DNA of 64,000 bases from Caldithrix abyssi DSM 13497 (GCA_945865405.1 CAMBDS010000003.1:143436-207435), one strand, 5' to 3'; positions 31,681 to 64,000 are shown, counted from the first letter of the stretch. Program-made: numbers and translations. Notes: a model not told the origin generated them from the letters alone.

Positions 31681-31782
31681 TCACGTATGATCCAAAGTGT
31701 ATGCACTGCCGGATCACCTTTATTTATTCCGGAGTTACCTGACCGTAATTCCAATTCACCTGAAATCAACCGTCAAAGAGTA

Positions 31783-47857: not shown

Positions 47858-49777
47858 GTGTCAAGCAAAATTCTAACATTACTGCCAAGCCCCGCGTTAG
47901 CCATTGCCCTCGGACTGGCGACTGCCGTGAGGGTGATTTACTGGCTTGCAGTTGCTGATCAGCCGTGGTTTCAGACGCCGGGCATGGACCCGGAGTTTTA
48001 CCGAACTTGGGCATCGGCGATTCTTGCCGGGCATGGGGCGGAATACATCCCGTTCCCCCGCGCGCCACTCTACTCCTATCTGCTTGCCGGCATCCTGAAA
48101 CTTTCAGGATCCGCTTGGCTTCTTCCCCGCCTTTTCAACCTGATCTTCGACCTCGTCACTGTTGGCGCGATCTGGTCAATCGGGAAAAAGATTGGTGGCA
48201 ATCGAGCAGGGTTCATAGCCGCTCTATTGTTCGCGCTCTGCGGAATGGCAATCTATCAGAGCGGGGAGCTGTTGATGACGTCGCTCGAAATGGCACTCGC
48301 GGCACTCTACCTTCTAATGTTCATCCGGACGTTGGAGTCCGGTAAAATCAGTTCAGCGGCGGCTTCCGGGCTGCTTTTGGGACTCTTCGCGCTCTGTCGC
48401 CCAAATGCGCTGGTACTGATGTTGTTAGCACCATTGGTGCTGGTTCTGTTCTGGCGCAAAGAGCTACATCGGGGGCTGATTTTAGCACCAGTGATGGCGA
48501 CAATCGGGCTGTTGGTAATCGCACCGGCGACCTACCTTAACTATGTGGCGACCGCGAAACTTGTTCCGGTCGCCACACAAGGCGGGGTAAATTTTTTCAT
48601 CGGTAATGCCCGAGGTGCCAACGGCTGGGCTTCATCACTTCCCGGAGTCGGGTCCGATTGGGTCGATGCCGACGCCGAAAGAATCACCGAGCTTGATGCG
48701 GGAAAGCCGCTGGAAACCTACCAGGAGTCCCGCCAGCTATGGAAAATGGGGCTCGCTGAAATTAAGGCAGATCCGGTTGCATGGACCGCTCTGATGGCGC
48801 GAAAGTTTTTGCTGTTAAACAACATTCGCGAGATTGGCAACAACCGCCCGTTGGCACTACCCATCGAGGCTGCGCCATTTCTGCGCTTGTTGTTCCTGAT
48901 CTCTGTCGGTGGACTCCTGCCCTTCGCAATCGTCGGATTCGTTCAAACGCGAAAGAATCGAGCTTTCGCGATAGGAAGCCTGACGTTTATCATGATCTAC
49001 GGCGGAAGCCTGTTACTCTTTTTCATCTCGAGTCGCTACCGGATGCCGTTGATGCCAATAGTGGCGGTACTGGCGGGGGTCGGGGTTACTTATCTATTTG
49101 CCAACCTTGCCAACCTGTTGCGAAGAAGCAGTTTGATTGCACTGACGGTTGGGTTGGTGATTGCAGTGCCTCCATGGGGAGGAACAAAGTTTGAGAACCC
49201 GGCCCAGGGATACTTCGTCGTCGGTAACGCGTTGCAAAAGCAGGGTCGTTACGCCGAAGCGATGCAATACTACGCTCGATCTGCTTCACTCGAACCGGGT
49301 TACCCCAAATTGCACCTGAACATGGGCGTAGCGTTGATGGCGAGCGGAGACACATTAGTGGCCGCCCAAGAGTTTCAGATAGAATTGTCGCTAAGTCCAG
49401 AGCGAGGCGAGGCGCTGAACAATCTGGCCGTTATCGCCGAAAGTCGTGGTGATCTAACACTCGCCAAAGAGTATTATCGACGGGCATCCGAAATGGAGTA
49501 TGGCGGTCAAGAGGCACTCGAGAACCTAATCCGTGTGGTGTTAAAGCAAGGTGACGACCTGTTTCAGCACGGGAATCTTGAGTCGGCAACATCTATTTAT
49601 CAGGAGGCTTCTTCGACGTCACTTACTGATCCGAGACCCTTATACCGCATGGCGTTGATAGCGGCAACCAAAGGAGAATTCCAGGAAGCGAGAGGCTTGG
49701 CAAGGGAAGCGCTTATCCGGGATCGGGAATATCAACCGGCTTCGAAGCTTCTTGCGGAACTTCCCCTGGAGGAATAA
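47858..49777 (+). CDS. ArnT/PMT-like (GT39/GT-C) membrane glycosyltransferase fused to C-terminal TPR repeats
   Basis: About 11 TM segments with an early periplasmic loop (PFPRAPLYSYLLAG). The C-terminal 200 aa are TPR repeats (GYFVVGNALQKQGRYAEAMQYYARSASLEPGY..., GEALNNLAVIAESRGDLTLAKEYYRRA). Confidence 0.7.
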   Translation: MSSKILTLLPSPALAIALGLATAVRVIYWLAVADQPWFQTPGMDPEFYRTWASAILAGHGAEYIPFPRAPLYSYLLAGILKLSGSAWLLPRLFNLIFDLVTVGAIWSIGKKIGGNRAGFIAALLFALCGMAIYQSGELLMTSLEMALAALYLLMFIRTLESGKISSAAASGLLLGLFALCRPNALVLMLLAPLVLVLFWRKELHRGLILAPVMATIGLLVIAPATYLNYVATAKLVPVATQGGVNFFIGNARGANGWASSLPGVGSDWVDADAERITELDAGKPLETYQESRQLWKMGLAEIKADPVAWTALMARKFLLLNNIREIGNNRPLALPIEAAPFLRLLFLISVGGLLPFAIVGFVQTRKNRAFAIGSLTFIMIYGGSLLLFFISSRYRMPLMPIVAVLAGVGVTYLFANLANLLRRSSLIALTVGLVIAVPPWGGTKFENPAQGYFVVGNALQKQGRYAEAMQYYARSASLEPGYPKLHLNMGVALMASGDTLVAAQEFQIELSLSPERGEALNNLAVIAESRGDLTLAKEYYRRASEMEYGGQEALENLIRVVLKQGDDLFQHGNLESATSIYQEASSTSLTDPRPLYRMALIAATKGEFQEARGLAREALIRDREYQPASKLLAELPLEE

Positions 49778-51449
49778 GCTCAAGCAGTGAGTGCTTATAA
49801 ATGACGTGACCCTTGAGAAATATATCCACCTTGGTCGCCCTAATACCAAACTCCTCAAACGAGGCATCTGAACTATATCGGGGGCTCTCAAAGTAGTGGA
49901 TTTTCCGAGCGTCTTTTGCCCTGAGCTCTTTTATCAACCCTGACATCGACTCACCTTTACGCAACACAAACCACGGCTGGTTATAGCTTGCAATGGCACA
50001 ATCGCCAGGAAGCCACCAGTTTCTTGTAATTACAAAATCATCCTCACATTTAGCCGTCCACTCATTCAAAAATTTGTTAATTATAGTATGACGGAATTCC
50101 AAAAAGAATGATACAAACTGATTCATCACAGAGAGACTTGCCAGAATGATAATTATCGCCCGCATCTCAGCGCGCCTCTGCCACCAACGTTGTAATCTAA
50201 CGCTTGCCAATAACAGGACAATTGGATAGATCATCAATAGGTGACGTGGCCCCCAATGCACGCCTTTTACAGCAGGACTGATGGCTGCAAGAAGCACAAT
50301 GGTCAGCAAACTCCCCTTCCACATCAACTGCCAAAACTTTCTTCGTTCTCCACTGAGCGGCATAAAGGCCAAGGCGATAATAGGTGAAATCCAGATCATT
50401 CCACCCGACTCGGCGGTATAGGCGATCATATTCTTTGACTTAAAAATCGAGAACAGATAAATCATTCCAACCATCGCTACGCTAGCGGAGATGTAAGGGC
50501 CAAGTTTATTTTCATCACGCCATAGAGGTCTTAACACGGCCAATGCAATAGGAATAAAGCAAAGCAAAGATAATACATTAGACGGAAATCCTTGAAGTAA
50601 CAGGATGTAGATATTCTGCAACCTGGTTATTACCAACTCTACTATACTTGAAGGAGGTCGTGCAATTAGATTGGCGAGAATGTGCATCGGGTAAGGAACA
50701 GTCGTTTGCCAGAAGTTTATCAGTGCGATTGCCAACAACCCTGCGGTAATTCCGAATATAAATCTCAACATCGATGGTAGTTGTCGCCCGGTATCCTTCC
50801 AAAATACCACAAGAATCACTGCCCACAAAATTACTTCGCTTCGAAGCCCTGAAGCTATGGCTATCAATAGTCCGGCTGGAAAAATTCCTTTCGCATCGCT
50901 CGACTTAACCTTGACGGAATGCGGTGGAAATAGCAATACAATAGCAAATACAAATAGAGCCGTCGCGAGAGTGTGTTCCCACAATGCCATTGTATAAAAT
51001 AAAATTGGAGAACCAACTCCAATAAGTCCAAGAAATACTCTGGCATCGTGATTTTGGCGTTGATTTCGCCACAATTGCCATGATCCAAACAGAACTCCCC
51101 ATCCGCCTATTAGCGGCAACAAGTATGGACCCCAATCGCCAAACACTTTAATTAGTAGTCCACCGAGTACCATAAAAAGTGGTGAAAATACAGGAATTTG
51201 TCCGGTTGCGGTAGCTAAACCGAAGGGCGGCTGTAACGGACGGAATTTGGAGTCGATACCAAATTCGATGCCCCGATTTGGCAAGACAATGCTTCCTGTC
51301 TCAGCAAAAGCCTTCATTCCCTGGAATTTGAACCCATTGTCAAGTCCCCAGAAAGACGGCTTTGGAATTGTCAGCCAAAATAAAAGATACAGCGCCGCGA
51401 GACTGAATACTACGTATGCTTCGCGGCGCCGTGTAGGAGAGGATATCAT
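49713..51449 (-). CDS. Polytopic membrane protein, GT-C/ArnT-like (tentative)
   Basis: 578 aa with about 13 hydrophobic segments and a soluble tail of about 140 aa. Noticeably AT-richer than its neighbours. The 3' end overlaps the convergent gene by 65 nt. Confidence 0.45.
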   Translation of the reverse strand: MISSPTRRREAYVVFSLAALYLLFWLTIPKPSFWGLDNGFKFQGMKAFAETGSIVLPNRGIEFGIDSKFRPLQPPFGLATATGQIPVFSPLFMVLGGLLIKVFGDWGPYLLPLIGGWGVLFGSWQLWRNQRQNHDARVFLGLIGVGSPILFYTMALWEHTLATALFVFAIVLLFPPHSVKVKSSDAKGIFPAGLLIAIASGLRSEVILWAVILVVFWKDTGRQLPSMLRFIFGITAGLLAIALINFWQTTVPYPMHILANLIARPPSSIVELVITRLQNIYILLLQGFPSNVLSLLCFIPIALAVLRPLWRDENKLGPYISASVAMVGMIYLFSIFKSKNMIAYTAESGGMIWISPIIALAFMPLSGERRKFWQLMWKGSLLTIVLLAAISPAVKGVHWGPRHLLMIYPIVLLLASVRLQRWWQRRAEMRAIIIILASLSVMNQFVSFFLEFRHTIINKFLNEWTAKCEDDFVITRNWWLPGDCAIASYNQPWFVLRKGESMSGLIKELRAKDARKIHYFESPRYSSDASFEEFGIRATKVDIFLKGHVIYKHSLLELIPPGEVPQEASKPVDIPDPG

Positions 51450-51500: not shown

Positions 51501-53417
51501 TTAGTGCGCGAAGGGATAAAAGAACCAGTCGAGCATTCCGTTGAACATCTCAGTGACAGGACCTTCTGTATGTCCAACCTCACCGCTGTCGCTCAAGAAA
51601 TAGAGCGGGAAAGTGAATATCGCAACCCGATAGCGAACCTCGAATGCACCACCAGGTTTTTCAACCACCTTCTCGTAGCGGATAGCTACTGGCTTCCGGT
51701 GAAAATCTGAAGATGGTTGGAACTCGTAATCGACCTCAATCGAATCGTCCACACTCCAGGGTTCACCAAACTCATAGCTGATGCGAACAATCGTCTGGGT
51801 GCCACCAACGTTGTTGGTAAGTGATTGAACCTGTCCCAAGGCACCTCTGGTAACGTTCAGCACACGGTGAACGTGCAAGACTCGTCTGCGGTCTATTTCG
51901 ATCAGACAGTTGACCGAAGTGGGCGGGAAGTTGATCGTATCGACACTGACCTTTACAAATGCCTGCTCATTCCGAACGTCACCTGAGGCTGTATCGGTAT
52001 ATGATTCGAACGTATAGACAGTTTCTGCACCACTTCCGGCCGTCATAACATCGACAGACGGCAGACAGGGATAAAGATCGTAGCCACCACGCCAGAACGG
52101 ACGATAGGCTGTACCTGTTTTACTGGTATCAATAGATAGAGATGGCAAGTCCCGCACACTGGAGATAGCACCGGTAAACTCAGCAGAAATTGACGGTGCG
52201 GATACTGCTACCGGCTGGGCCGGGTAACTCGATTCAGCAAGCGCAATGGTCGTGTCGCTTGTCCACGACCGTACAAAGGCTCCCGCAACCCAAAGCCTTC
52301 CGCCAGCTCGAACATATTCACGCAGCCTCCCTTCAAATGGTGCGCTTACACGATCCCTGTTTTCAGAGAACCAGACTACCAGCTTGAATCTGCCGAGGAA
52401 CGCTTTGAAAGGCTGAATCGTGTCGGTAACTGCAGTATAATGGTGATAATGTGTATCAGGATATCGCGAGGCTAACTGGCGGTAAAACTCACCAATTTGA
52501 GTTCCGGGCTGGATATTACCTTGCGCTCCTCCGCCTTCACGCGTTGTATTGAGTAGCAGTATCGACTGCTCGAATGTCGGCTGATAGACATCGAAGCTTG
52601 CCGTCGCCGGTCGCTCGGAAATCTCATAGCCGTCATCGCGCGCCCAAACCGTTAATGTATAATGTCCCGATTCCAGCCCAGAAAGCACCAGATCCTGTCG
52701 CGTTGTCCAGCCCTGTGAGACCCATTGCCAGATTGTGTCGTGAGGAACTTTCTCAAGATAATACTTGAATTCCAGCGGAATTCGATAAAGCTCCTTATCG
52801 TCAGGGTCGGATGATCTCCAGTTGAAACCTATCCCGGGCCACGATTCGGTCACTGCACTGAGTGAATACGAGGTATCAATGATTGTAATTCGCTCGTCGA
52901 ATGAACCATCAGGAGCCGTGAACCACTTAATCTCAGGAACACGCGGCGGTCGGTTTGACCTAAAAAATGTCCTGTAAATTACGGCAGACTCAGTCTCGCG
53001 GTCATCGACGCACTTCAAGTAAAAAACGTGTTCGGTGACCTTACCGGAAGAAGTGAGCAAATAGACCGTGTCGGATGTCGCTTGTGTACGAATCCAGGCG
53101 TCTTCCGGGATAAACGGGATGTAATATGCTGGATCGAGCAACGCCGTGGAGTCGATCACGTCGGCATACATATATTCCTCGACAAACCCGTCGGGGTCGC
53201 GCCCTTTCCAGTGAATGACCGGTGCAAAGGAAAAGGTGTCGTTATTGGCAGGAATATTCGTGTATTCGACGATAGGCAATTGGTTCATTGTCACATCGCC
53301 GTCAAGTGACCCGCAACCGGTCATTATTCCAGCAGTCATTGCGAAAATGACCAGCAGGAGAGTCAGAATGAGGCGTTCGCCGGTTTTAGATACGATTCGA
53401 ATGTTTTTTTCAGCCAT
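51501..53417 (-). CDS. Lipoprotein of unknown function (Ig-like N-terminal part, alpha/beta C-terminal part)
   Basis: AGIMTGCGS lipobox. Contains a Y_Y_Y-like segment (GHYTLTVWARDDGYEISERPATASFDV) and a later segment KLVVWFSEN...LREYVRAGGRLWVAG. Overlaps the upstream gene by 8 nt. Confidence 0.55.
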   Translation of the reverse strand: MAEKNIRIVSKTGERLILTLLLVIFAMTAGIMTGCGSLDGDVTMNQLPIVEYTNIPANNDTFSFAPVIHWKGRDPDGFVEEYMYADVIDSTALLDPAYYIPFIPEDAWIRTQATSDTVYLLTSSGKVTEHVFYLKCVDDRETESAVIYRTFFRSNRPPRVPEIKWFTAPDGSFDERITIIDTSYSLSAVTESWPGIGFNWRSSDPDDKELYRIPLEFKYYLEKVPHDTIWQWVSQGWTTRQDLVLSGLESGHYTLTVWARDDGYEISERPATASFDVYQPTFEQSILLLNTTREGGGAQGNIQPGTQIGEFYRQLASRYPDTHYHHYTAVTDTIQPFKAFLGRFKLVVWFSENRDRVSAPFEGRLREYVRAGGRLWVAGAFVRSWTSDTTIALAESSYPAQPVAVSAPSISAEFTGAISSVRDLPSLSIDTSKTGTAYRPFWRGGYDLYPCLPSVDVMTAGSGAETVYTFESYTDTASGDVRNEQAFVKVSVDTINFPPTSVNCLIEIDRRRVLHVHRVLNVTRGALGQVQSLTNNVGGTQTIVRISYEFGEPWSVDDSIEVDYEFQPSSDFHRKPVAIRYEKVVEKPGGAFEVRYRVAIFTFPLYFLSDSGEVGHTEGPVTEMFNGMLDWFFYPFAH

Positions 53418-54054
53418 TGACTCGTCTCAGTCTCTCGATTTCGTCCAGCAGTTCGTGGCGACCTGCCGGTTTGGTAATATCTGCTTCGAACAAGGGATTC
53501 AAATAATTGACTACTGTAGAGTAACTCGATGCAAAGTCACCCAAATTGTAGTGCGCCGCCGCCTTCAACAACTGTACGTCGTCGTCGTTGAGAGTCGCCT
53601 CATGAAGAAACCGCCAGCCCGGACGACGATGCAGAAGCGAATCGCTCTTTTGGATGGCGCTCGACCAACTGCCAAGCTGATAGGCGGCAAACGCCCAACC
53701 GCCAATAGCATCGTAACGGGTTGTATCGATCTGAAGCGCACGCGCAAAGCACACCGGAGCGTCATCCAATCTGTCAGGCAGTTTTCCGAGAGTCCAGCCT
53801 TTACCGTTCCATGCGTCGGAAAGCGAAGCGTCCCGCCCGATTGCGCCTTCGAACTCTTGAAGTGCTTTGGTGTACTCACCTTCCTCATAGTATGTCCACC
53901 CTTGACCAACCTGTTGCGCCGGGCTGAGATTAGCGCCAGAAGTCGGTGAGTCGTCTTCTTTACTGCACCCTGCGCTGATAACGGTTACAAGCCCAATCAG
54001 CAGGAAGGTCTTTGGGTGCCAGTTGGTTCCGTTTTTTTTCGCGATTACGATCAT
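53410..54054 (-). CDS. TPR-repeat lipoprotein
   Basis: VISAGCSKEDD lipobox. TPR-like repeats (GWTYYEEGEYTKALQEFEGAIGRDASLSDAWNGKGW...). Confidence 0.7.
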   Translation of the reverse strand: MIVIAKKNGTNWHPKTFLLIGLVTVISAGCSKEDDSPTSGANLSPAQQVGQGWTYYEEGEYTKALQEFEGAIGRDASLSDAWNGKGWTLGKLPDRLDDAPVCFARALQIDTTRYDAIGGWAFAAYQLGSWSSAIQKSDSLLHRRPGWRFLHEATLNDDDVQLLKAAAHYNLGDFASSYSTVVNYLNPLFEADITKPAGRHELLDEIERLRRVNG

Positions 54055-54061
54055 CTGAAGG

Positions 54062-57000
54062 TTACCTCACCAATAGCAGTTTGATGGAACGGACGCCTTG
54101 TCCTGATGTCAATTTCGCCCAATAGATACCGCTCGGCAGCGGGCTTCCGCCACTAACACCAGCATCCCAATGCACTTCATGCCTGCCCGCCTTGAAGTTC
54201 CCGGCGGTTAGTGTTTCGATCTGACGGCCGGATAGGTCGTGAACTGTCAGAGTGACATTTCTTGTTTCAGAAAGGTCAAAGGCGATAGTAACTCCACCGT
54301 TGAACGGATTGGGAAAGGCTTCGATAAGTTCGGCTGACAGCGGCACAATCGGGCTGGAAGATCGTTCATCTCCGATTGCAAGTACATACTCGCCGTCACC
54401 TTCGATTTCGGCATTCAACCAGCCTTGTTCGTAGTGACCTGCAACAATTTGCCAACCGATACCGTTGCGTTGATAAAGACTCAAGCCTTTGACTTCGGCA
54501 AGTGCAGAAGCAAAGGTCGGGATCTTGATGAGAGCCTTTCCGGACAGTCCCGAAATCAAAGTCGAGCCGCTGGCGGGCAGGAAAGCTGGTTCAGGCTTGA
54601 TGGATGACTCGCCAACAGTTGCCATGACAAGGCGATTTTGCGAGTTTTGATGACCCGGTAAAATCAACTCGCCGCCCAGATCTGCCAGATATATTGTGCC
54701 GTCACTGGTATTGGCGAGCTTCACTTCGAATGTCCTGCCAACTTTCATCGACGAACCTGCTCCGACCTGACCGTTCGAGGTGAGAAAAATCGTCCCTTCT
54801 TCCGGCACTTCAATGCTACCGCGGTAGGCTGACCCATCGATCTGACCAAGTGTTACTGACCGCATCGGGCCAGACGAGAACTCAACAGAGCAGACAGGAG
54901 CTGACGTGAAGCCCTCTTCGCTCGAAACGATCACGTCACACCAGCGCGGGAAGGCGGGATTCTGGAATAGATTGATCGAAATGTCGGTCATCCCCCAGCC
55001 GCCACCGAGAGGGCCTCCATAAGCACCAATGTCGTTGCGGGAAGTCATTTGTGCTGGCGGGAAGAAAAAGTCGCGGTAAGCCGACTCAGGGTTGCCTTTA
55101 TCGAGCAAGGGCGAGTTACTGGCAAGTTGATATGGCATGGCCCCGGTGCCGACAAAACCTGGATTGACAGCGAGATTCTTATTCACGACCGCATCACCGG
55201 GGTAATCAGAGTAAGTGACGAGAGCGTTGCTTTGATCTTGTAAATCGAAGGGCTCTGTGTTACCCCAGATGATAGAGTTTATCACCGCCGGAAGGGAGCT
55301 GTCGGTAACCTTGATACCGATGCCACTGTTATCGGCGATTGTGCAGTTGACGATTCGAGGCGCGGATCGATCAGAAACGGTAATAGTCGAAAAGCCGTTT
55401 GGAGCGGTGTTGTGATCGATGATGAGACTCTGGTACAAACCACCGGTTAAAAACTTGACGTAAATTGCCGCACCGTCATTAGCGCTGTTGTTGCGGATAG
55501 TGCAGTTGGCAATGGTCGGCTTGGAGTTGACTATATAAGCTCCGCCGCCCAGTGCAGCTCGGTTGCCTTCGATCAGGCAGCTGATAATCTCGGCTCCGCT
55601 GTTCTCGATGCGAAGTGCACCGCCGCGACTGGTGCCACGAGCGGTGGTGGTCGAATCGCCGTTGTTGGTGATCGTTGAGAATTCAATTCTCGGTGAAGCC
55701 TCGCTAATAACAAGCCCCGTCCTACTTGATTTAATCGAACAGTAGGAGAGTCTGCTGGCGTCAACGACGGATAGTTCTATGCCTTTCCAGCGGGCAGCCT
55801 GAGAACCGGAATTGTCACGCGGGAGGAAGTAAATCGAGTCGGTCGGAGTACCCACTGCACGAACTTCGCCTTCAGCAATGAATGCAGCGCCTGGCTCGAA
55901 CAGAATGCGAGCACCAGCCTCGATCTTCAGTCGCTGATTAATCGGGACGTAAACCGAGTCGAGAACGATATAATCGTCATGTCCATCGAACCAGTCCCAG
56001 ACGCCACTCACATGCCCGAACACGTACCTTCCCGGCTCTGCCATACCTCTACCAGAAAGCCGGACAACTTGTGATTCGGGGTAATTAGAGCTTATCGTGA
56101 CCCGACTGTTGCGAACCTGATTGGCAATCGGTGGGTGGAACCTGATAACAAGCTCGCCGGTCGATCCGGGTGCGATAACCAAACCGCCGTTGGGAAGAAG
56201 GGTACTGAACGCGACCGTGTCGGCAACTTGCGCTGAGTTGATGACGAGATTTTCGTCGCCTTCGTTGCGGATTGCAATTGATGAAACTGCCGTGTCACCA
56301 TTGACATAGACGTAGCCGAGGAATCTCATCGAAGTATCGGGCAGAACCAGTTTGGGTCCGTATCCTCTACCGAGCAGATAGATGAAGAGGTCGCGGTCGT
56401 TGGTGTCAAATCCAGCGGAAACTGAATACGATTCGGGAAGTGATGGCGAAAATGTGAACTGCACCTCGCCAGAGTCACCACGTGCGATGTTAGCATCAAC
56501 GACGATGGCCGAGAATGCATCACCTTGAATAGGGTTTCGCTCGAGAGTCAGGTTGCTTCGTCCGGTATTCTTGACCCAGACTGACTTGGTTCTCTCGCTT
56601 CCAATAGCGGTACGTTCAAACGTCAATGAGTCTACCATTACCGCGACCGGATCGATACCGGTTCCGTTCAAGGTTAATACTGGAACCTGCGTGATTGAGT
56701 CGTTGGTGACAATCGTCAAGGTTTCCTGATAGGCGCGGATATCATTGGGACGGAAAAAGATCGTGTATTTTGCAGACTCACCAGGCTCAATTGGAGCGGC
56801 AAGGTAGGATGGGATCAAGCCGCTGTCGCCTTCGGTAGAGTCTGTATAAAAGGCTCGATTGGAGAATTGGAAGTCGCTGATAATCAGACGGTAATGACCG
56901 CGATTCTCTATCTTGATCTCTTTGGGTGTCGCAGCATTTAAGCGGAAGTTGCCAAAATTCAACGCATTAAAGTTGACCCTGACGACCGGCACGGAAAGCG

Positions 57001-58078
57001 TTGCCTCCTCCGTGCCGCCATAAGCCCCGACATCGATCCGGTTGACAAGCTGATCCGGCTCTGCAGTCGCGTTATATTTGGGGTCACCGCCATCGACATC
57101 AGGCGAGAAGGTGCTCAAGTGAAAATCAAGCGGCGGAACAAGACTCATGAACTCCGGGTCGAGATAAATGTTGCCAGACCCGGGAAATGGCGAAAGAGGT
57201 ACCATTCCAACGTTGCTGAAACTTACTGAGGCTCGCGCAGATTGCGCCCGCCCCAAATCACGGGTGTAGTTGTCTCCTGGCCCAAGATCTCCGCCCCAGA
57301 GTTGGTGTACGTTGTGTGTCACAATCGAGTTGACGATCGTCGGTCGTGACTCGGCCCCTGCAAAGATACCGCCACCCCAAGCACCAGCTGTATCGAGGGC
57401 TATGGTGCAGTTGATGATCTCTGGGCTGGAATAGGAAAAAAAGAGAGCGCCGCCAAAGTTCCTTGCGTAGTTGCTATGGAAGAGGACGTTGGTGATACTT
57501 GCATTGGCAAACCAACTAAAATAAGCGCCACCGTCTGCATCGGCACGATTACCAAAAATCTCACTTCTGGTGATGGTCGGATTGCAACTCTCTGCATAAA
57601 TTCCGCCGCCACAGTTTCTCGGCCATGCTCCACGAGCCCAGCCATTAGTGATGCGCACAAAACTTAATTTACAGCCGTTGCTCGCCTCAACGAATCGAAT
57701 CCCACCCCAGCGCATCGAATCAGGTGAACCAGCTACCGAAGTGAAGGTCACCATATCGTCTTTGGTGCCAATGGCGCTGAGCCAGCCGTGAACAACAAAG
57801 ACATAAGGGCCGGCAAATTCGACTCTGACGCCTGGTTCAATGCGTAAACTGTCGAGTGCCCCCAATTCGATGTCGCCAGTTACGATATACGGGCTGTCCC
57901 CTACCCGCCAGGTGCCGCCCGCAAGCATACCGTTGACATTCAATGCCGAAACAGGCGCTGCAAACATCCCCAGCACCAACAGTGCAACTATCAGGGGAAA
58001 AGTCATGGGAAGGCTCTTCACGCTTTGAACTCCAAATTGTACTCGACCATTCCGGTTCATCATATTTTGCCTCACCAT
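54062..58078 (-). CDS. Giant double parallel-beta-helix protein with Ig-like (choice-of-anchor-D-like) middle and T9SS sorting domain (1338 aa)
   Basis: Two beta-helix blocks (ITRSEIFGNRADADGGA, IINCTIALDTAGAWGGG; IISCLIEGNRAALGGGA, IANCTIRNNSANDGAA, IVNCTIADNSG). Between them are four Ig-like repeats (LNFGNFRLNAATPKEIKIENRG..., LTFERTAIGSERTKSVWVKNTG...). C-terminal domain FPNPFNGGVTIAFDL...HDLSGRQI...GIYWAKLTSGQGVRSIKLLLVR. Confidence 0.85.
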   Translation of the reverse strand: MVRQNMMNRNGRVQFGVQSVKSLPMTFPLIVALLVLGMFAAPVSALNVNGMLAGGTWRVGDSPYIVTGDIELGALDSLRIEPGVRVEFAGPYVFVVHGWLSAIGTKDDMVTFTSVAGSPDSMRWGGIRFVEASNGCKLSFVRITNGWARGAWPRNCGGGIYAESCNPTITRSEIFGNRADADGGAYFSWFANASITNVLFHSNYARNFGGALFFSYSSPEIINCTIALDTAGAWGGGIFAGAESRPTIVNSIVTHNVHQLWGGDLGPGDNYTRDLGRAQSARASVSFSNVGMVPLSPFPGSGNIYLDPEFMSLVPPLDFHLSTFSPDVDGGDPKYNATAEPDQLVNRIDVGAYGGTEEATLSVPVVRVNFNALNFGNFRLNAATPKEIKIENRGHYRLIISDFQFSNRAFYTDSTEGDSGLIPSYLAAPIEPGESAKYTIFFRPNDIRAYQETLTIVTNDSITQVPVLTLNGTGIDPVAVMVDSLTFERTAIGSERTKSVWVKNTGRSNLTLERNPIQGDAFSAIVVDANIARGDSGEVQFTFSPSLPESYSVSAGFDTNDRDLFIYLLGRGYGPKLVLPDTSMRFLGYVYVNGDTAVSSIAIRNEGDENLVINSAQVADTVAFSTLLPNGGLVIAPGSTGELVIRFHPPIANQVRNSRVTISSNYPESQVVRLSGRGMAEPGRYVFGHVSGVWDWFDGHDDYIVLDSVYVPINQRLKIEAGARILFEPGAAFIAEGEVRAVGTPTDSIYFLPRDNSGSQAARWKGIELSVVDASRLSYCSIKSSRTGLVISEASPRIEFSTITNNGDSTTTARGTSRGGALRIENSGAEIISCLIEGNRAALGGGAYIVNSKPTIANCTIRNNSANDGAAIYVKFLTGGLYQSLIIDHNTAPNGFSTITVSDRSAPRIVNCTIADNSGIGIKVTDSSLPAVINSIIWGNTEPFDLQDQSNALVTYSDYPGDAVVNKNLAVNPGFVGTGAMPYQLASNSPLLDKGNPESAYRDFFFPPAQMTSRNDIGAYGGPLGGGWGMTDISINLFQNPAFPRWCDVIVSSEEGFTSAPVCSVEFSSGPMRSVTLGQIDGSAYRGSIEVPEEGTIFLTSNGQVGAGSSMKVGRTFEVKLANTSDGTIYLADLGGELILPGHQNSQNRLVMATVGESSIKPEPAFLPASGSTLISGLSGKALIKIPTFASALAEVKGLSLYQRNGIGWQIVAGHYEQGWLNAEIEGDGEYVLAIGDERSSSPIVPLSAELIEAFPNPFNGGVTIAFDLSETRNVTLTVHDLSGRQIETLTAGNFKAGRHEVHWDAGVSGGSPLPSGIYWAKLTSGQGVRSIKLLLVR

Positions 58079-59178
58079 AACAGTGCGGCGAGTTTATAAC
58101 CGACCGTGAAGCGATGCGCTCCACCAAGCGTACCCATGCCAGCCCAAGCATAATCGACAGTGACGCCCGCTTCTGGAAGATTCAGCCCCAAACCTGCCGA
58201 GAAGCCGTCCAGCGACAAGCCGCCATCTTCGTTGATTAAAGGAAACTCAACGAACGGATCTTTCTGCTGGTCATTCTGGTAGTCTTCCCATGAATCGCGG
58301 GTGAAGGCGTTGATCCGTTTGCCAAGGCGGAAACTGACCATCTTCATTGCTGTAAATTCAGCACCGATGTGATAGAATTCGATGTTGTCGTTTGGGTGAA
58401 GGAACTCTCCAGCTAACAAAATCGAGTAGAGCGGAGTCTCCCAGGCATACATCGAAGCGCCAAATTTGAAGCTGATCGGCAACGGAAACGGAGTCGATTC
58501 AAACTTCATATCAGGGCCGAAATTCTGGATCACCATACCGATGCTGATGTTCTTCCAGCCTGTCGTGTAGAAAGTCCCGACATCAGCCGACCATCCGGAC
58601 GCATTCTTGTCGGCTAATCTTTCGTTCAACATCTTGAACGTTCCACCAACCGAAAATTTGTCTGTAAGTCGATGACAATACGTTACTCCAGCCGCGAAAT
58701 CACTGGCAGTGAACGTCCGACCGGTACCGTATGGGTTGCCGGGTGTCGTCTCTACCATATCGTCGGTGAAGAGGCTTGTCACTTGCAAGCCGATCACTCC
58801 GGGAGTCCCTTGAAGCGGTATTGCGCCACCGATATAGACAAACTTCACTCCCGCCACGTAATCGATCAGTGTGAAGAATGCTTCCGGCTTCGAAAGCTGG
58901 ATCAGTCCGCCCGGATTATAATAGAGGGCAGAAACGTCGTTGGCGACTGCGGTGAAGGCGTCACCCATTGAGGTGGCACGAGCACCCGGACCGACCTTCA
59001 GGAACTGAAGCCCGGCAGTGCCGACCTTCGCCTGTCCAAAAGCCATTGGACTCGTACAGGCAAGTAAAACGAACGCAAGGAGGACTCCAATCAGCCTCTG
59101 CATCGGTCGGGCTCCTATCTTTACGACTCCGAAAATCGAATCAGATTGATATGTCGGACGAATTGCGGACTTGCTCAT
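58072..59178 (-). CDS. porV: PorV/PorQ-family T9SS outer-membrane beta-barrel protein
   Basis: Signal peptide, then the family-typical N-terminus GTAGLQFLKVGPGARATSMGDAFTAVANDVSALYYNPGGL. Alternating beta-strand pattern, aromatic-rich C-terminal strand. Overlaps both neighbours (4 nt and 7 nt). Confidence 0.8.
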   Translation of the reverse strand: MSKSAIRPTYQSDSIFGVVKIGARPMQRLIGVLLAFVLLACTSPMAFGQAKVGTAGLQFLKVGPGARATSMGDAFTAVANDVSALYYNPGGLIQLSKPEAFFTLIDYVAGVKFVYIGGAIPLQGTPGVIGLQVTSLFTDDMVETTPGNPYGTGRTFTASDFAAGVTYCHRLTDKFSVGGTFKMLNERLADKNASGWSADVGTFYTTGWKNISIGMVIQNFGPDMKFESTPFPLPISFKFGASMYAWETPLYSILLAGEFLHPNDNIEFYHIGAEFTAMKMVSFRLGKRINAFTRDSWEDYQNDQQKDPFVEFPLINEDGGLSLDGFSAGLGLNLPEAGVTVDYAWAGMGTLGGAHRFTVGYKLAALLW

Positions 59179-62100
59179 CGGATCACCACAAATTTACCGG
59201 TTTCCATTTCGCTACTGCCACCCGCTGTAAGGTCTTCCACCGTATATAGGTACAATCCGGCGACTACTTGCTGGTGGTTGCGTGAATTCAGATCCCAGCT
59301 CTCCGCGTAGTCGGCACTCCAGCCCTGATTATCGTCGCCATCGACGTTGTGGGGAACGATATCGACCAGATCGCCGGAGACCGTATAAATTCTGACCAGG
59401 CACTCTTTCGGCAGGTTGTAGAAGTAAATTCGCCTGTCAGTCTGCGGGAAAAAGTCTGGCGTCCCGTCATCGCGGTTTTCCCATGAAACACCACCGTGCA
59501 GTTCGCGATAGTCGGCATTTGCCCGGTAGGGGTTCGGCACAACGCCAACCTTCTTATTGTCTGTTCCGGAAGGCGCGATATAGACAGCGTTGGCAATTTT
59601 GGCAGTCTCTAGCGGCTGTGTACCGGTCTTATAATCGCCATAATCATACGCTGTCACCGCATAGTAACGGGGGACCATCGGATGGGCGTTATTGATGACG
59701 TAATAATAGGTCCAATCGTCCTCGTTCGAGGTTGAATCGATCACCATTTGATCGAACCCAAGAACACCTGTATTTTTTCGCACAGGTTTGAGGTAAAATC
59801 GTTCGCCACTATACGAAATCTCGCGTGGCATTCCCGTCGTATCGGTTATAGGCTTGGTGGCAAGTGAGTCGGTGATGCTGAAGTAGGCGTAATCTTCTAT
59901 ATCAAATTCGTCAAGGAACGAAAAATCCTTTTCGGAATTGGAGTTTGAGACGTAGATGCGATAACCTTCGAAGTCACGTTCGCGAGAGAAAGGGTCTTTG
60001 TACCCCGCGTCTTCAGTCGGCGATTGTGTCCAACTCAAGACGACATTTTCGGTCAGGAACTCGTCAGAAAAAACCGTCTCGCCATCTGTACCACGGTTCA
60101 CCACAACAGGCTCGTCAACATGTGACAGGAAGGGAGCAGGTGGCGGCGGTGGACCTTGAAAGTCCGGGTGCCCATCACCAAAGTCAAGTTGCTGATTAAA
60201 ACGGGTATAATCAAGATATTCGGGACGTTCAAGGATATCCTCGGTCGCCAGATCGACGTGCCCATCGTTCTCTGTTCCGTCTGCGTCGGGCCCAGGATAG
60301 ATTCTCGTCTCTCGCTGGCCACCAATCCAAACATAGCAAACATCGCCGGGATATAACCCAAATAACCCATCGGTACCGACATCTTCCCCGAACCAACCAT
60401 CACCAGTGTCAAGAACCCCATCATTTTCAGAGTTGTCGCGGTCACCAGTTCCAGGCTGATGGTCGTTGCCCCAATCGTTGATAGGTGTGTCGATCATCGG
60501 GTTATCGTAAACGCGTGCTGCCCAGTCTGAGTTATATCGCAGGCTACCGAAATTGAACAGGTTTGGATCGATGATTTCGTTATCGATTTGCGCCCGATTT
60601 CGATCATGGAAATTGTCTCCGGCGACATAAGCAATCGTCATAGAAAACTTTTCGCCGGGATTGAGGCGATAGATTCGATTGCCTTCTATATCGACATGAT
60701 CGAAAATGCCCAGCGGCCCCCACGACAACAGGTATCGCGTGTCGAATCCGTTCGCAAGATCGTTCACGAGGTTTTGAGGTGTATCGTCCGGTTGAACGCC
60801 CGGAACTTTAAAGTTGTGGGCAGGCTCGGTGAATTGCCCCGGCTCAAGACGGTTGGGAAATTCTTGCGGATTGTTTCCAATGTAAATCGGATCGTTGACA
60901 TAAGTCTGGTCGTAGTCGAATTCACGATTTTTTAAGACGAAATACTTTCGAACGTCACCCATCGGAGTTCCATACGCGCCTGTCCAGCCACCCGGAGCGC
61001 CATCATCATCCCATGACGGCCCGAAGTCGAGATTGGCAGCTCCGTTCGAAACCCACCAGTTAAAGCTGGTTTTGAGGCTCGGATTGGGTGCTCTAACTAC
61101 CCTGACGCCCGTTACGCCGGGTGACGTGAAATCGTTACCCGCCGCAGTGTTCCTCGGACGTCCATCGTTATCAGCAATCCAGGCTGTATTGATTATGGAC
61201 GAGTCAGGCTCGCCGTCCTGCCGGGTGTAGTAGTACCATTGCTGGAAGCCGCAGATATCATCATCGTACCAATTTTGTTCGCCCTGCCAACCTACATCTG
61301 CGTCGATATAGAGCCCTACGTAGAGATTTTTCAGGTAGTTACCGGCTATGTTCTCGATTTCCCAGTCGATAATGATGAAGTTCTGCGCATAGTTGTAGGT
61401 CCAGGCGTAGGTCTTCTGCGTAATCTTAATTCCGAGTGGGATATGAGGGCCGTCGATCGGGTCATCCTTGACCCAAAAATCTTCGGTGAGGGTGTCGGCG
61501 TAACTGGTGACGAAATCTTGCTCGGATATAGCAGATTCCCGGAAGGAGCCGATGTAGTTGCCGAGGCAGTCGTAGTCGATAGGAAGTGTGGAACGTTCGA
61601 CGAAACCGTTGGTCTGGGAGTTCGTCGCGCCTTCACCGGGATTAAACTCATTGATGCCGGGGTTGCCGATCCAGCCATCGGTACCGACCGAGACGCGAGG
61701 ATACTCATAACCCTCAGCGCGGATCAGAGCTCCTAACCAAAGTGCGCCTTGAAAAAGATACTGAACCTGTGAGCCGCCGGGAAATTCACATTGCGGTGCC
61801 CATTCACCCGGTCGGCACGGATCGTCGATTGCGGCGGACGAGCCGGGACTGCTATTTCCGAAATAACCGTAGTTGGTGAAGTTCATCCAGATGTTTGACC
61901 GTCTTGAAACGCGGTTCATCTGGTTGAGCTGAGAAATGTCGATGCGCTCCGGGCCGACTCGCTTGCCACCCTCCACCGTTGACCCGTCAAATGCGGCGAA
62001 CGCGGGCTGTGATGTGAGCAACAACAGCCCTAATAACATTGCTACAAGAGAACAATAGAAATTGAGCGATGCCCGCAATGATGTTAGTCCGCCATGATCC

Positions 62101-62213
62101 GCTGAACTGTCGAATCTCCTGCGCAAAGCTGCCCCTGTATCTTGTGAAGTGCGCAAGCCTGCTTGCGCTTCCTGACCGTTAGCTGAAGAATGATTCAGCA
62201 CACCAAATTTCAT
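59175..62213 (-). CDS. Large secreted protein of unknown function with a sorting-domain-like C-terminus (~1012 aa)
   Basis: I prefer the start at MKFGV (62213), downstream of the upstream gene's stop, over the track start at 62309. Hydrophobic signal-like segment (LVAMLLGLLLLTSQPAFAAF). Asp-rich Ca-binding-like runs (DTGDGWFGEDVGTDGLFG; PDADGTENDGHVD). C-terminus ...IYFYNLPKECLVRIYTVSGDLV...AGLYLYTVEDL...GKFVVIR. No C25 motif seen. Confidence 0.7.
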   Translation of the reverse strand: MKFGVLNHSSANGQEAQAGLRTSQDTGAALRRRFDSSADHGGLTSLRASLNFYCSLVAMLLGLLLLTSQPAFAAFDGSTVEGGKRVGPERIDISQLNQMNRVSRRSNIWMNFTNYGYFGNSSPGSSAAIDDPCRPGEWAPQCEFPGGSQVQYLFQGALWLGALIRAEGYEYPRVSVGTDGWIGNPGINEFNPGEGATNSQTNGFVERSTLPIDYDCLGNYIGSFRESAISEQDFVTSYADTLTEDFWVKDDPIDGPHIPLGIKITQKTYAWTYNYAQNFIIIDWEIENIAGNYLKNLYVGLYIDADVGWQGEQNWYDDDICGFQQWYYYTRQDGEPDSSIINTAWIADNDGRPRNTAAGNDFTSPGVTGVRVVRAPNPSLKTSFNWWVSNGAANLDFGPSWDDDGAPGGWTGAYGTPMGDVRKYFVLKNREFDYDQTYVNDPIYIGNNPQEFPNRLEPGQFTEPAHNFKVPGVQPDDTPQNLVNDLANGFDTRYLLSWGPLGIFDHVDIEGNRIYRLNPGEKFSMTIAYVAGDNFHDRNRAQIDNEIIDPNLFNFGSLRYNSDWAARVYDNPMIDTPINDWGNDHQPGTGDRDNSENDGVLDTGDGWFGEDVGTDGLFGLYPGDVCYVWIGGQRETRIYPGPDADGTENDGHVDLATEDILERPEYLDYTRFNQQLDFGDGHPDFQGPPPPPAPFLSHVDEPVVVNRGTDGETVFSDEFLTENVVLSWTQSPTEDAGYKDPFSRERDFEGYRIYVSNSNSEKDFSFLDEFDIEDYAYFSITDSLATKPITDTTGMPREISYSGERFYLKPVRKNTGVLGFDQMVIDSTSNEDDWTYYYVINNAHPMVPRYYAVTAYDYGDYKTGTQPLETAKIANAVYIAPSGTDNKKVGVVPNPYRANADYRELHGGVSWENRDDGTPDFFPQTDRRIYFYNLPKECLVRIYTVSGDLVDIVPHNVDGDDNQGWSADYAESWDLNSRNHQQVVAGLYLYTVEDLTAGGSSEMETGKFVVIR

Positions 62214-62235
62214 CGTTTTGCCAGTTACAGTGCTG

Positions 62236-64000
62236 TTATCGTGCACCTGGTCCGCCGAAAGCTCCCATATCACTCCTGCTACCATTGGGATCCAGAATCG
62301 CCGGATCACCGGCGTCTATGCAGAGCGAACCGGCCTTGAGCCAATACTCTTCGTAAGCTGTTCCAGCGGCACCTACAAATGACGGGTCGGTAATGATGTT
62401 GGTAGCCATGTTGAGTGTTGTGTCCGATGAAATCGAGACTGGCGAGACCGGGTTGCCCCAAAAGTCATTATAGGTAATCTGTGGGAATGAGGAGTTCTCG
62501 GCGAAAATTCCTCTTCCTCCACGAAGCACACTACCGTTGCGGTAGAAAATGTTGTTAGTGACTACTGGCGACGAGTTGTTCGAGCAAACAAGTCCGAAAT
62601 AGCCGTTGCTGGCAAAGACGTTGTTGACGATTTCGGCGTTGGAAAGGTTCTCAATCCGCATTCCGTCGGTTCCATTGAAGCAGATCACGTTGTTCTTCAC
62701 TTCCGGTCGAGATGAGCCTGCGGCATGAATGCCGTAGCCCTGCCCGCCATAGATGAAGTTACCGGAAATCGTCGGCGAACTGTTAAACCGGCAAATGATC
62801 CCTGCGATAGAGTTTCTAATGAAGCGACAATTTTCGATGGTCGGATTGGAGATGTTGTCGCAATAGACGCCGACCGAGTCTGTATCCATGAACGTGCAGT
62901 TGACGATCCTGATGTCTTGTCCGATCAACTTGACACCCCAGCGAGCATGGGAGATCTCAGTGTAGGATAGGACGCTTGAGGGGTCGCCGCCGCTATCGAA
63001 GATTAGCCCAAGCCAATCTCCTTTTATCGGCGATAATGAAGCCGATTTAATCCTGACAGGATTTGCCGAAGTTCCGGATGAAAGGATGCGCCCTTTGGCG
63101 CGGATCGTGAAGCGTCCTTCAACCCTTATCTCGACACCGGCATCGATATTAAGGTTTTGGCCTGACGGCAGATAGATGTCGCTGGAGAGGGTGTAGGGGC
63201 TTCCCGCCGCAGTCAAGGTTCCCACCGTGAACAACCGGCGAATTTCGCCGGGCCGGTAGGTGTAAGAGTAAACGCCAAGGTCAAGTCGCGTTCCGTCGCC
63301 ATCGAGTGATGTTCCCACAGGTCCCGCATCGATTGCCGATGACCATGGGTTTAAATGGAAGTCCCAACTGGTGCCGTTCTTAATCTTGGATGCGTTGACA
63401 AATTCGGGATTGAGTCGAAGATTAAACTTGTAGTCGCAGCTATCGAGATTGCCGTTTGCCCCGGCGATTCTGCCGAGCCTGACTGGAGCCTGGAGGTTAA
63501 ACTCGCCCGAAAAGTTCTCGATGACGATGTTATAGCTGACATTGACGTCATCGCGGCGTTCTTCGGTCGGCATGGCGCAGAAAACGCCGTAGTCGTCATT
63601 TTCGGCGATAATATTGTATCTGATGTTCGGGTTAGCGCCAGATTCGATATAAACACCATTTCCAGCGTTGTCAAAAAACACCGATCTCTGGATAACCGGG
63701 TCGGACGTCGAATCGCAGTAAACACCGTGAAATCCACTGGCGAGAAACCACGAATGGGATACTGTGGGGCTCGAGTTCAACAGAGTCAGACAGCCATACT
63801 CGATTCTGGTGCTATCAAGCTCGCCATTGGTGGTGTCATACGAGAAGTGCCGCCCAAATTTCGCGCCGTAGATGAAGCGGCAATACTCAAAGACGGAGGC
63901 TGGGTCGGCCGAATTGAGCCATATTCCATCCCAATCCCCACGAGTCGGATTGCGAGATCCTGATGTGAAAGTGATCGGGGCGATTTCGTTCCCTCTCGCA
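62236..64000 (-). CDS. Parallel beta-helix repeat protein, 5'-truncated by the window end
   Basis: Beta-helix turns (IENCRFIRNSIAGI, ISGNFIYGGQGYG, VKNNVICFNGTDG, IVNNVFASNGYFG, VTNNIFYRNGS). My own translation shows the frame stays open from the track start (TTG 63780) to nt 64000: ...ITFTSGSRNPTRGDWDGIWLNSADPASVFEYCRFIYG... Confidence 0.8.
   Translation of the reverse strand, partial: ARGNEIAPITFTSGSRNPTRGDWDGIWLNSADPASVFEYCRFIYGAKFGRHFSYDTTNGELDSTRIEYGCLTLLNSSPTVSHSWFLASGFHGVYCDSTSDPVIQRSVFFDNAGNGVYIESGANPNIRYNIIAENDDYGVFCAMPTEERRDDVNVSYNIVIENFSGEFNLQAPVRLGRIAGANGNLDSCDYKFNLRLNPEFVNASKIKNGTSWDFHLNPWSSAIDAGPVGTSLDGDGTRLDLGVYSYTYRPGEIRRLFTVGTLTAAGSPYTLSSDIYLPSGQNLNIDAGVEIRVEGRFTIRAKGRILSSGTSANPVRIKSASLSPIKGDWLGLIFDSGGDPSSVLSYTEISHARWGVKLIGQDIRIVNCTFMDTDSVGVYCDNISNPTIENCRFIRNSIAGIICRFNSSPTISGNFIYGGQGYGIHAAGSSRPEVKNNVICFNGTDGMRIENLSNAEIVNNVFASNGYFGLVCSNNSSPVVTNNIFYRNGSVLRGGRGIFAENSSFPQITYNDFWGNPVSPVSISSDTTLNMATNIITDPSFVGAAGTAYEEYWLKAGSLCIDAGDPAILDPNGSRSDMGAFGGPGAR

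Follow-up and report, generated by a model that had tools for sequence, protein, structure and literature searches.

Type IX secretion system (T9SS) substrates are bound to a carrier barrel when they leave the SprA translocon (PMC10202324; PMC10994853). The sorting domains of PorU and PorZ are retained, and these two proteins stay bound to PorV and PorQ (PMC10202324), while type B cargo is anchored by PorP-like carriers (PMC10994853; also PMC9143113). The locus described here lies in a stretch of 64,000 nucleotides (the window; contig C3:143436-207435). The genome, presented as Caldithrix abyssi DSM 13497, is 2.76 Mb in size and 90% complete and was assembled from lake water as part of a metagenome. 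The locus pairs a large protein that ends in a T9SS-type sorting domain with an outer-membrane barrel of the PorV/PorQ family. This region makes up the core of an operon, conserved and about eight genes and 18.5 kb long, in the order TonB-dependent receptor, bh673, large protein, barrel, (p1338, TPR214), p638 and GT578, the bracketed pair being missing from one variant of the cassette. With some reserve, we favour the reading that this operon builds a TonB-receptor surface complex in which a T9SS-exported partner is held by a dedicated PorV-like carrier. No published description of the cassette was found in the literature, and BtuB-type and thiamine-type receptors are the only ones named in the genome paper on Caldithrix abyssi. 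Counted from the first letter of the window, the pair and its parts lie as follows:

58072..59178, minus strand: PorV/PorQ-family outer-membrane barrel, 368 aa, candidate private carrier or anchor (NF033709, 178.1 bits vs cut-off 90)
59175..62078, minus strand: large protein, likely 967 aa; signal peptide, supersandwich of ~480 aa, Asp-rich region, Ig/FN3-like region, sorting domain at the C-terminus (AlphaFold2 (AF2) model, homolog alignment)
59178..59552, minus strand: aa 843-967 of the large protein, a probable T9SS sorting domain of divergent sequence (hhalign; hidden Markov model (HMM) of the C-terminal domains (CTDs) of the same genome)
60252..60410, minus strand: Asp-rich, Ca-binding-loop-like runs of the large protein (direct sequence reading)

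An earlier, sequence-only reading of the window had assigned the 368-aa protein to the PorV/PorQ family, and the family model NF033709 (PorV_fam) bears this out, with a match over model positions 1-325 of 326. As closer identities, PorV (NF033710 equivalog, 54.5 bits vs a cut-off of 250, model positions 15-230 of 367), PorQ (NF033711 equivalog, 99 bits vs 220, model positions 4-220 of 335) and PorV2 (equivalog, 67.9 bits vs 325) were each rejected, and PorP/SprF models did not match the barrel, for which only PorV/PorQ-type models gave matches. The same reading had taken the locus for a porV whose usual porU slot had been taken over by another protein, a claim that fell, as a canonical porU-porV pair is present on contig C34 and the window barrel fails the PorV and PorQ equivalogs. 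A genome-wide search with the PorU model (NF033707) found one true porU (608.5 bits vs a cut-off of 420, C34:7910-11095), directly upstream of the top-scoring PorV-family gene (C34:6652-7644, 277 bits), whose product reached 207.6 bits on the PorV equivalog over model positions 9-365; the pair spans C34:6643-11734. SprA is encoded in the genome as well, and a weak PorZ-like candidate is found on contig C16 (756 aa, sorting tail, 20.4 bits vs a cut-off of 27). Since the T9SS keeps its own shuttle and sortase on C34, the window barrel, one of nine PorV-family genes in the genome, is a paralog and not a porV that lost its porU. Present in a single copy, this PorV-family paralog is not to be equated with the PorV proper of the genome. 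This corrects an annotation error, in that a gene of the "PorV/PorQ family" need not encode a T9SS shuttle.

The canonical T9SS attachment cluster (C34:357-11734) comprises porU (1285 aa) and then porV (370 aa), after which come a T9SS-associated, M6-like inactivated metalloprotease of 1072 aa (NF052323, 397 bits, under the cut-off of 600) and, last, a 1022-aa protein with HExxH, a TolB-like propeller and a barrel-like end, ...ILFDFL. Five of the nine PorV-family genes, porU-porV included, directly follow a gene with a sorting-domain-like tail. At C10:57822-62293 a sorting-tailed protein of 538 aa precedes two PorV-family barrels (335 and 290 aa), and at C13:34882-44369 a sorting-tailed protein of 2836 aa precedes one of 321 aa. 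Within the window, three very large open reading frames (ORFs; 1656-1827 aa) lie at 11374-16344, 26055-31538 and 31687-36867; the PorU-model matches of the first and third are weak and partial (17-20 bits, in the C25 region), so these look like C25-type T9SS cargo, not sortases.

The tail of the large protein had been described beforehand as sorting-domain-like on account of the motif AGLYLYTVEDL...GKFVVIR (59178-59261), a description that profile comparisons support. Aligned with hhalign against the 97 type A CTDs of its own genome, it gave a probability of 93% (E 3e-7), and the own-genome CTD HMM matched 42 of 42 members of the large-protein family. In relatives of a paralog on contig C1 either PF18962 or PF13585 is present, or the protein is named "T9SS type A sorting domain-containing protein". 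The order of motifs, VVPNPY ... RIYFYNLP ... GLYLYTVED ... GKFVVIR, parallels FPNPF ... VTIAFDLSE ... GIYWAKLTS ... IKLLLVR in the neighbouring protein p1338, which is itself assigned a type A sorting domain by TIGR04183 (37.9 bits vs a cut-off of 23). By these sequence comparisons, the tail of the large protein is most probably a divergent T9SS sorting domain. When C-terminal pieces were scanned against Pfam, only CHU_C (14.6 bits vs 27, E 0.036) and Por_Secre_tail were matched, both below threshold; a type B CTD with a PorP/SprF carrier was rejected, given the sub-threshold CHU_C match and an adjoining barrel that matches PorV/PorQ-type models only. After PNPY there is an insertion of 32 residues (59433-59528, aa 851-882), which is 64-82% identical across family comparisons, placing it among the most conserved parts, and is predicted to be disordered in the monomer model. 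Conservation together with disorder would fit a segment that folds on a partner.

Three alternative starts are available to the large ORF, GTG 62309 (1044 aa), ATG 62213 (1012 aa) and TTG 62078 (967 aa). The length of about 1012 aa first reported corresponds to an ORF that does exist, but the third start is the likelier one, because homolog alignments begin near residue 77 and because it yields a clean 28-residue signal peptide, MRASLNFYCSLVAMLLGLLLLTSQPAFA. The large protein is thus likely to be 967 aa long. No Pfam or NCBIfam model matched it at E<=0.01, and a PDB sequence search with the family profile returned only a chance SH3-like match (E 0.2). The sequence-only reading had remarked on the lack of a C25 motif, and indeed neither PorU nor C25 models match; identity as a PorU/C25 sortase was rejected on the lack of a C25 or T9SS_sortase match and of a place among the genome-wide NF033707 matches. 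Identity as PorZ was rejected as well, with no match to PF21544 and, in the AF2 model, an N-terminal supersandwich and no beta-propellers; PorZ (5m11) came 21st in the Foldseek ranking (E 4e-3, template modelling (TM) score ~0.1).

The AF2 model, made from the family alignment, has a predicted local distance difference test (pLDDT) score of 80.4 and a predicted TM score (pTM) of 0.78. In it, the first ~480 residues form a galactose-mutarotase-like beta supersandwich, for which Foldseek gave, at E about 3e-5, top PDB matches to N-domains from GH94 phosphorylases and aldose 1-epimerases. The N-domain is accordingly modelled as a carbohydrate-binding-type fold, with no enzyme assignment implied. 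Asp-rich loops, a polyproline stretch, Ig/FN3-like sandwiches and a terminal sandwich of the last 6-7 strands follow in the model. The two Asp-rich runs pointed out previously, DTGDGWFGEDVGTDGLFG (60357-60410) and PDADGTENDGHVD (60252-60290), are both there and are Ca-loop-like by sequence. Hardly any variation is seen among aligned family members at G560-D571 and D599-E604.

More than 947 homologs of the large protein were found, all unnamed and without Pfam domains, from Calditrichota-type metagenome-assembled genomes (MAGs), e.g., Ca. Hatepunaea, Ca. Electryonea, Ca. Tariuqbacter and MAGs labelled LCP-89 or KSB1. At E<=0.001 the family profile matched 4882 representatives of public protein clusters, and at E<=1e-30 it matched 639, most of them through the ~500-aa N-domain, which occurs in many architectures. 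A large uncharacterised family hereby gains a genomic context and a testable role.

The conservation of the cassette was assessed by running the family profile on 79 genomes of the phylum (Calditrichota-type MAGs) and taking 80 related loci with 10-kb flanks, most missing components being contig or flank ends. The large protein was present in 78 of the 79 genomes, usually in two full-length copies, alongside shorter paralogs with which the first ~520 positions are held in common. A synteny check across related MAGs, as proposed with the sequence-only reading, found the neighbourhood conserved: the cassette was recognised in 49 of the 80 loci, down to 45% identity of the large protein. Among these 49, bh673 and a PorV-like barrel adjoining the large protein were each found in 46, p638 in 39, the TonB-dependent receptor in 37, p1338 in 28, isocitrate dehydrogenase in 25 and TPR214 in 23, the last nearly always at loci with p1338. 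GT578 kept the same position in 18 (down to 23-27% identity), and a PMT639 homolog the same convergent position in 17, a count limited by flank length.

A single-copy ortholog of the window barrel was found in 73 of the 79 genomes. Coordinates place it directly beside a large-protein copy in at least 55 genomes, and in 7 further genomes it lies ~5.1 kb away with the 1338-aa gene in between; in the remainder the barrel is at a contig edge, or the large-protein matches fall outside those listed. One lineage has p1338 between large protein and barrel, and in Ca. Hatepunaea the same gene order was obtained from an independent gene call. In some lineages (loci L049, L051, L065 and L088), a tandem-duplicated large protein was seen with a single barrel. 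The gene order of the cassette has therefore been inherited across the phylum, and the near-universal presence of the operon suggests a core physiological role. Because the pairing is conserved across the phylum, "lineage-specific PorV partner", as the large protein had tentatively been called, is a fair reading if taken to mean a partner of a PorV-family barrel. The lipoproteins, for which membership of the same complex had been proposed, do travel with the pair across the cassette loci.

The genome also has a second cassette, diverged, on contig C1, in which a receptor is accompanied by a large-protein homolog of 793 aa, one small lipoprotein, a barrel that is PorV-like (177 bits) and a p638-related lipoprotein. 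At C40:2973-5861 there is a stand-alone copy, 63% identical to the large protein and with the same tail, which follows a PDZ/esterase-like gene and is not accompanied by a barrel; 31 of the 80 related loci are such copies with none of the cassette neighbours. In the family tree, cassette and stand-alone copies form sister clades within each lineage and not two deep clades, which points to repeated duplication or gene conversion. This tree, to be taken as a lead only, would agree with a need for both copies to fit one barrel.

The other genes of the operon and the gene beside it were placed as follows:

62236..64000, minus strand: 3' 587 codons of bh673, a beta-helix lipoprotein with lipobox IVAG|C (PF13229, 136 bits; PF05048)
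54062..58078, minus strand: p1338, double right-handed beta-helix with Ig-like domains and a type A CTD (PF13229, PF05048, PF22544, NF012200, TIGR04183, PF18962)
53410..54054, minus strand: TPR214, small TPR-like lipoprotein with lipobox ISAG|C (weak TPR matches, every one under Pfam cut-offs)
51501..53417, minus strand: p638, lipoprotein with lipobox IMTG|C, FN3/Ig-like domains in tandem, one alpha/beta domain and one beta-sandwich (AF2, Foldseek)
49713..51449, minus strand: GT578, final operon gene, polytopic GT-C-like putative glycosyltransferase of the LA_3751/LA_3752 family, 578 aa (NF047440, 145.5 bits, under the cut-off of 200)
47858..49777, plus strand: PMT639, TPR-fused PMT_2/ArnT-like GT-C glycosyltransferase, 639 aa (PF13231 PMT_2 and TPR matches)

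Six co-directional minus-strand ORFs were confirmed in the span 51501-64000, in the order, and with the gaps and overlaps, that the sequence-only reading had given. Between p638 and TPR214 the overlap is 8 nt, between p1338 and the barrel 7 nt (58072..58078) and between the barrel and the large protein 4 nt, while 7 nt separate TPR214 from p1338 and 22 nt separate the stop of bh673 from ATG 62213 of the large protein. GT578 is on the same strand as p638, 51 nt downstream of it. GT578 and PMT639 are convergent, their 3' coding ends overlapping by 65 nt (49713-49777), and this convergent pair is kept beside the cassette in many lineages.

Some of the gene descriptions made at the outset needed adjustment. 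The beta-helix gene at the window edge, put at more than 587 aa, does have 587 codons within the window, and on contig C3 the full gene runs on to the window-equivalent position 64257 and encodes a lipoprotein of 673 aa. The TPR lipoprotein has its lipobox, but its TPR assignment lacks a match above the Pfam cut-offs. The 1338-aa double beta-helix cargo stood as described, with two beta-helix blocks (Beta_helix, NosD), choice-of-anchor-D Ig domains (Pfam, NCBIfam) and TIGR04183 above its cut-off. For p638 there was no match in Pfam or NCBIfam; its AF2 model (mean pLDDT 83.8) found only generic tandem FN3 and cadherin-like domains in Foldseek, and it is best modelled as an FN3-stalked lipoprotein. 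The lipoprotein of the C1 cassette is its remote homolog (E 3e-6).

What the sequence-only reading had missed were the receptor at the start of the operon, outside the window, and the GT-C gene at its end, below the span it had flagged. The receptor gene (1273 aa, C3:207852-211673; locus L020:2853-6674) precedes bh673 beyond the right edge of the window, with isocitrate dehydrogenase upstream of it. Its product has CarboxypepD_reg, plug (PF07715, 35.5 bits vs 23.9) and barrel (PF00593, 87.4 bits vs 27) domains and, on the plug and 22-strand barrel models, is predicted to be a TonB-dependent receptor. Between plug and recognisable barrel it has an Asp/Asn-rich insertion of ~270 residues, with about ten DxNGNGxWD-type, Ca-loop-like repeats. 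TIGR04056 (SusC/RagA) did not match the receptor, and SusD (PF07980) had no match anywhere in the genome. A scan of the region for promoters and terminators predicted fewer sites than in shuffled sequence. With the receptor and GT-C genes included, the likeliest function shifts from a "T9SS attachment variant" to a "receptor-centred surface complex".

In the mechanism that we propose, the large protein would cross the outer membrane via the SprA translocon and leave it bound, by its sorting domain, to the private PorV-like carrier. It would then stay anchored on this barrel with the sorting domain uncut, beside the receptor, bh673 and p638, which would place its supersandwich and Ca-loop region next to the receptor and the surface lipoproteins. 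The resulting complex would capture a ligand, probably glycan-like, for TonB-powered import, whilst p1338, with its ordinary type A tail, would be handled by PorU. Export, collection by the barrel and anchoring are inferred from the published carrier principle and from the position of five of the nine PorV-family genes behind a sorting-tailed gene. As there is no SusD in the genome and the receptor has no SusC match, the large protein may act like SusD-type lids or surface glycan-binding proteins and, by this analogy, would stand in for SusD-type partners.

Several observations weigh against this account. The protein-protein contact, the retention of the sorting domain and the import are all reached by inference, and the sorting domain of the large protein falls under all curated Pfam and NCBIfam thresholds, TIGR04183 and PF18962 included. 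Unusual conservation of the CTD was considered as a sign of retention and rejected as not discriminating, with CTD and body 66% vs 59% identical in the large protein and 41% vs 35% in p1338, an ordinary cargo with a similar CTD-to-body ratio. The similarity of the supersandwich to its PDB matches is partial (TM 0.15-0.19 on the query). In most genomes a second, stand-alone copy has the same tail without its own barrel. No riboswitch or other RNA element that would mark a substrate was found upstream of the receptor, and the operon sequence was found in lake-water DNA metagenomes only and in no RNA runs. Lastly, the operon is single-copy, near-universal and next to isocitrate dehydrogenase, no degradative enzyme or known carbohydrate-active enzyme (CAZyme) was recognised in it with Pfam or NCBIfam, and two conserved GT-C glycosyltransferases point towards envelope glycosylation. 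Taken together, these features suit substrate-specific uptake no better than they do a housekeeping role in the envelope.

The alternative that survives best builds on this last point. Large protein and barrel would form a housekeeping part of the envelope or of T9SS attachment, a lineage-specific counterpart of PorZ-PorQ, with the two GT-Cs working on surface glycans or lipopolysaccharide (LPS) and the receptor-like barrel serving that purpose and not nutrient import. One copy per genome in 73-78 of 79, high sequence conservation, the fixed position beside a housekeeping gene, the two GT-C genes and the lack of degradative enzymes would all be accounted for; the sole PorZ-like gene of the genome is a weak match, and a carbohydrate-binding-type N-domain would suit LPS handling. 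Yet that 756-aa candidate does have a sorting tail and the genome already has porU-porV with the M6-like gene, while the large protein has no beta-propellers and only a distant structural likeness to PorZ. The C1 cassette, moreover, repeats receptor, partner, barrel and lipoprotein without a GT-C gene. We regard this alternative as unlikely.

Somewhat less likely again is that the large protein is ordinary T9SS cargo, processed by PorU and then released or linked to LPS, with the barrel acting independently (e.g., as a FadL-like channel) and the adjacency reflecting co-regulation. The stand-alone paralog, which keeps the tail with no adjoining barrel, would be expected under such an arrangement, as would a sorting domain whose conservation is not exceptional when set against p1338, and the PorV family shares the FadL fold, with the C1 barrel paralog giving a weak Toluene_X match (E 9e-5). 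However, FadL-type models score the barrel far lower than the PorV/PorQ family model does, adjacency has been kept phylum-wide while loci were rearranged and the large protein was tandemly duplicated, and five of the nine PorV-family genes of the genome come after a sorting-tailed one. It is very improbable that the receptor-like barrel works outwards, by analogy with Oar of Myxococcus xanthus, a TonB-dependent transporter reportedly needed for PopC secretion (PMC6434023), and that the cassette exports and displays its own beta-helix and lipoprotein components: the CarboxypepD_reg-plug-barrel architecture and the ~270-aa Asp/Asn-rich extracellular insertion, unusual for importers, would suit this, but with two T9SS-tailed cassette proteins and a full SprA translocon an extra exporter is unneeded, and homology to Oar or PopC was not seen, no search having been aimed at it.

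Should the receptor-centred complex with its carrier-held partner prove correct, the cognate-carrier-barrel principle of type IX secretion would come to cover how a TonB-dependent receptor is given its surface partner, in phyla without SusD. Going beyond the locus itself, we would tentatively suggest that Calditrichota-type bacteria, and possibly other SusD-less Bacteroidota relatives, may have a core outer-membrane uptake machine of undescribed design, in which a TonB-dependent receptor bearing an extracellular hub of Ca-loops, large in size, would be joined by a ~1000-aa partner of a new superfamily, surface lipoproteins and GT-C glycosyltransferases.

Set against known systems, the window pair most resembles PorZ-PorQ and PorU-PorV of Porphyromonas gingivalis, in that a CTD protein is encoded with, and would be held by, a 14-strand barrel of the PorV/PorQ family, and the order of CTD protein and then barrel is also that of PorU-PorV on C34. 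It differs from them in that the barrel fails the PorV and PorQ equivalogs, that the large protein has neither a C25 domain nor beta-propellers, and that the pair sits inside a TonB-receptor operon with the canonical pair elsewhere in the genome. A dedicated carrier barrel encoded beside its cargo is shared with type B cargo and PorP/SprF barrels (SprB-SprF), whereas the window barrel is of the PorV/PorQ family and the tail of the large protein is closer to the type A domains of the genome. Unlike SusC/SusD loci, the operon is single-copy and near-universal and has no known CAZymes, its receptor has no SusC/RagA match in a genome without SusD, and the partner would be delivered by the T9SS and is not a lipoprotein. 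It is nonetheless like SusC/SusD (RagA/RagB) utilisomes in its layout, with a CarboxypepD_reg-plug-barrel receptor leading, followed by surface lipoproteins and secreted carbohydrate-binding-type folds. With Oar of Myxococcus xanthus, compared by domain architecture, it shares a receptor-like barrel that is long and has a CarboxypepD_reg domain at its N-terminus.

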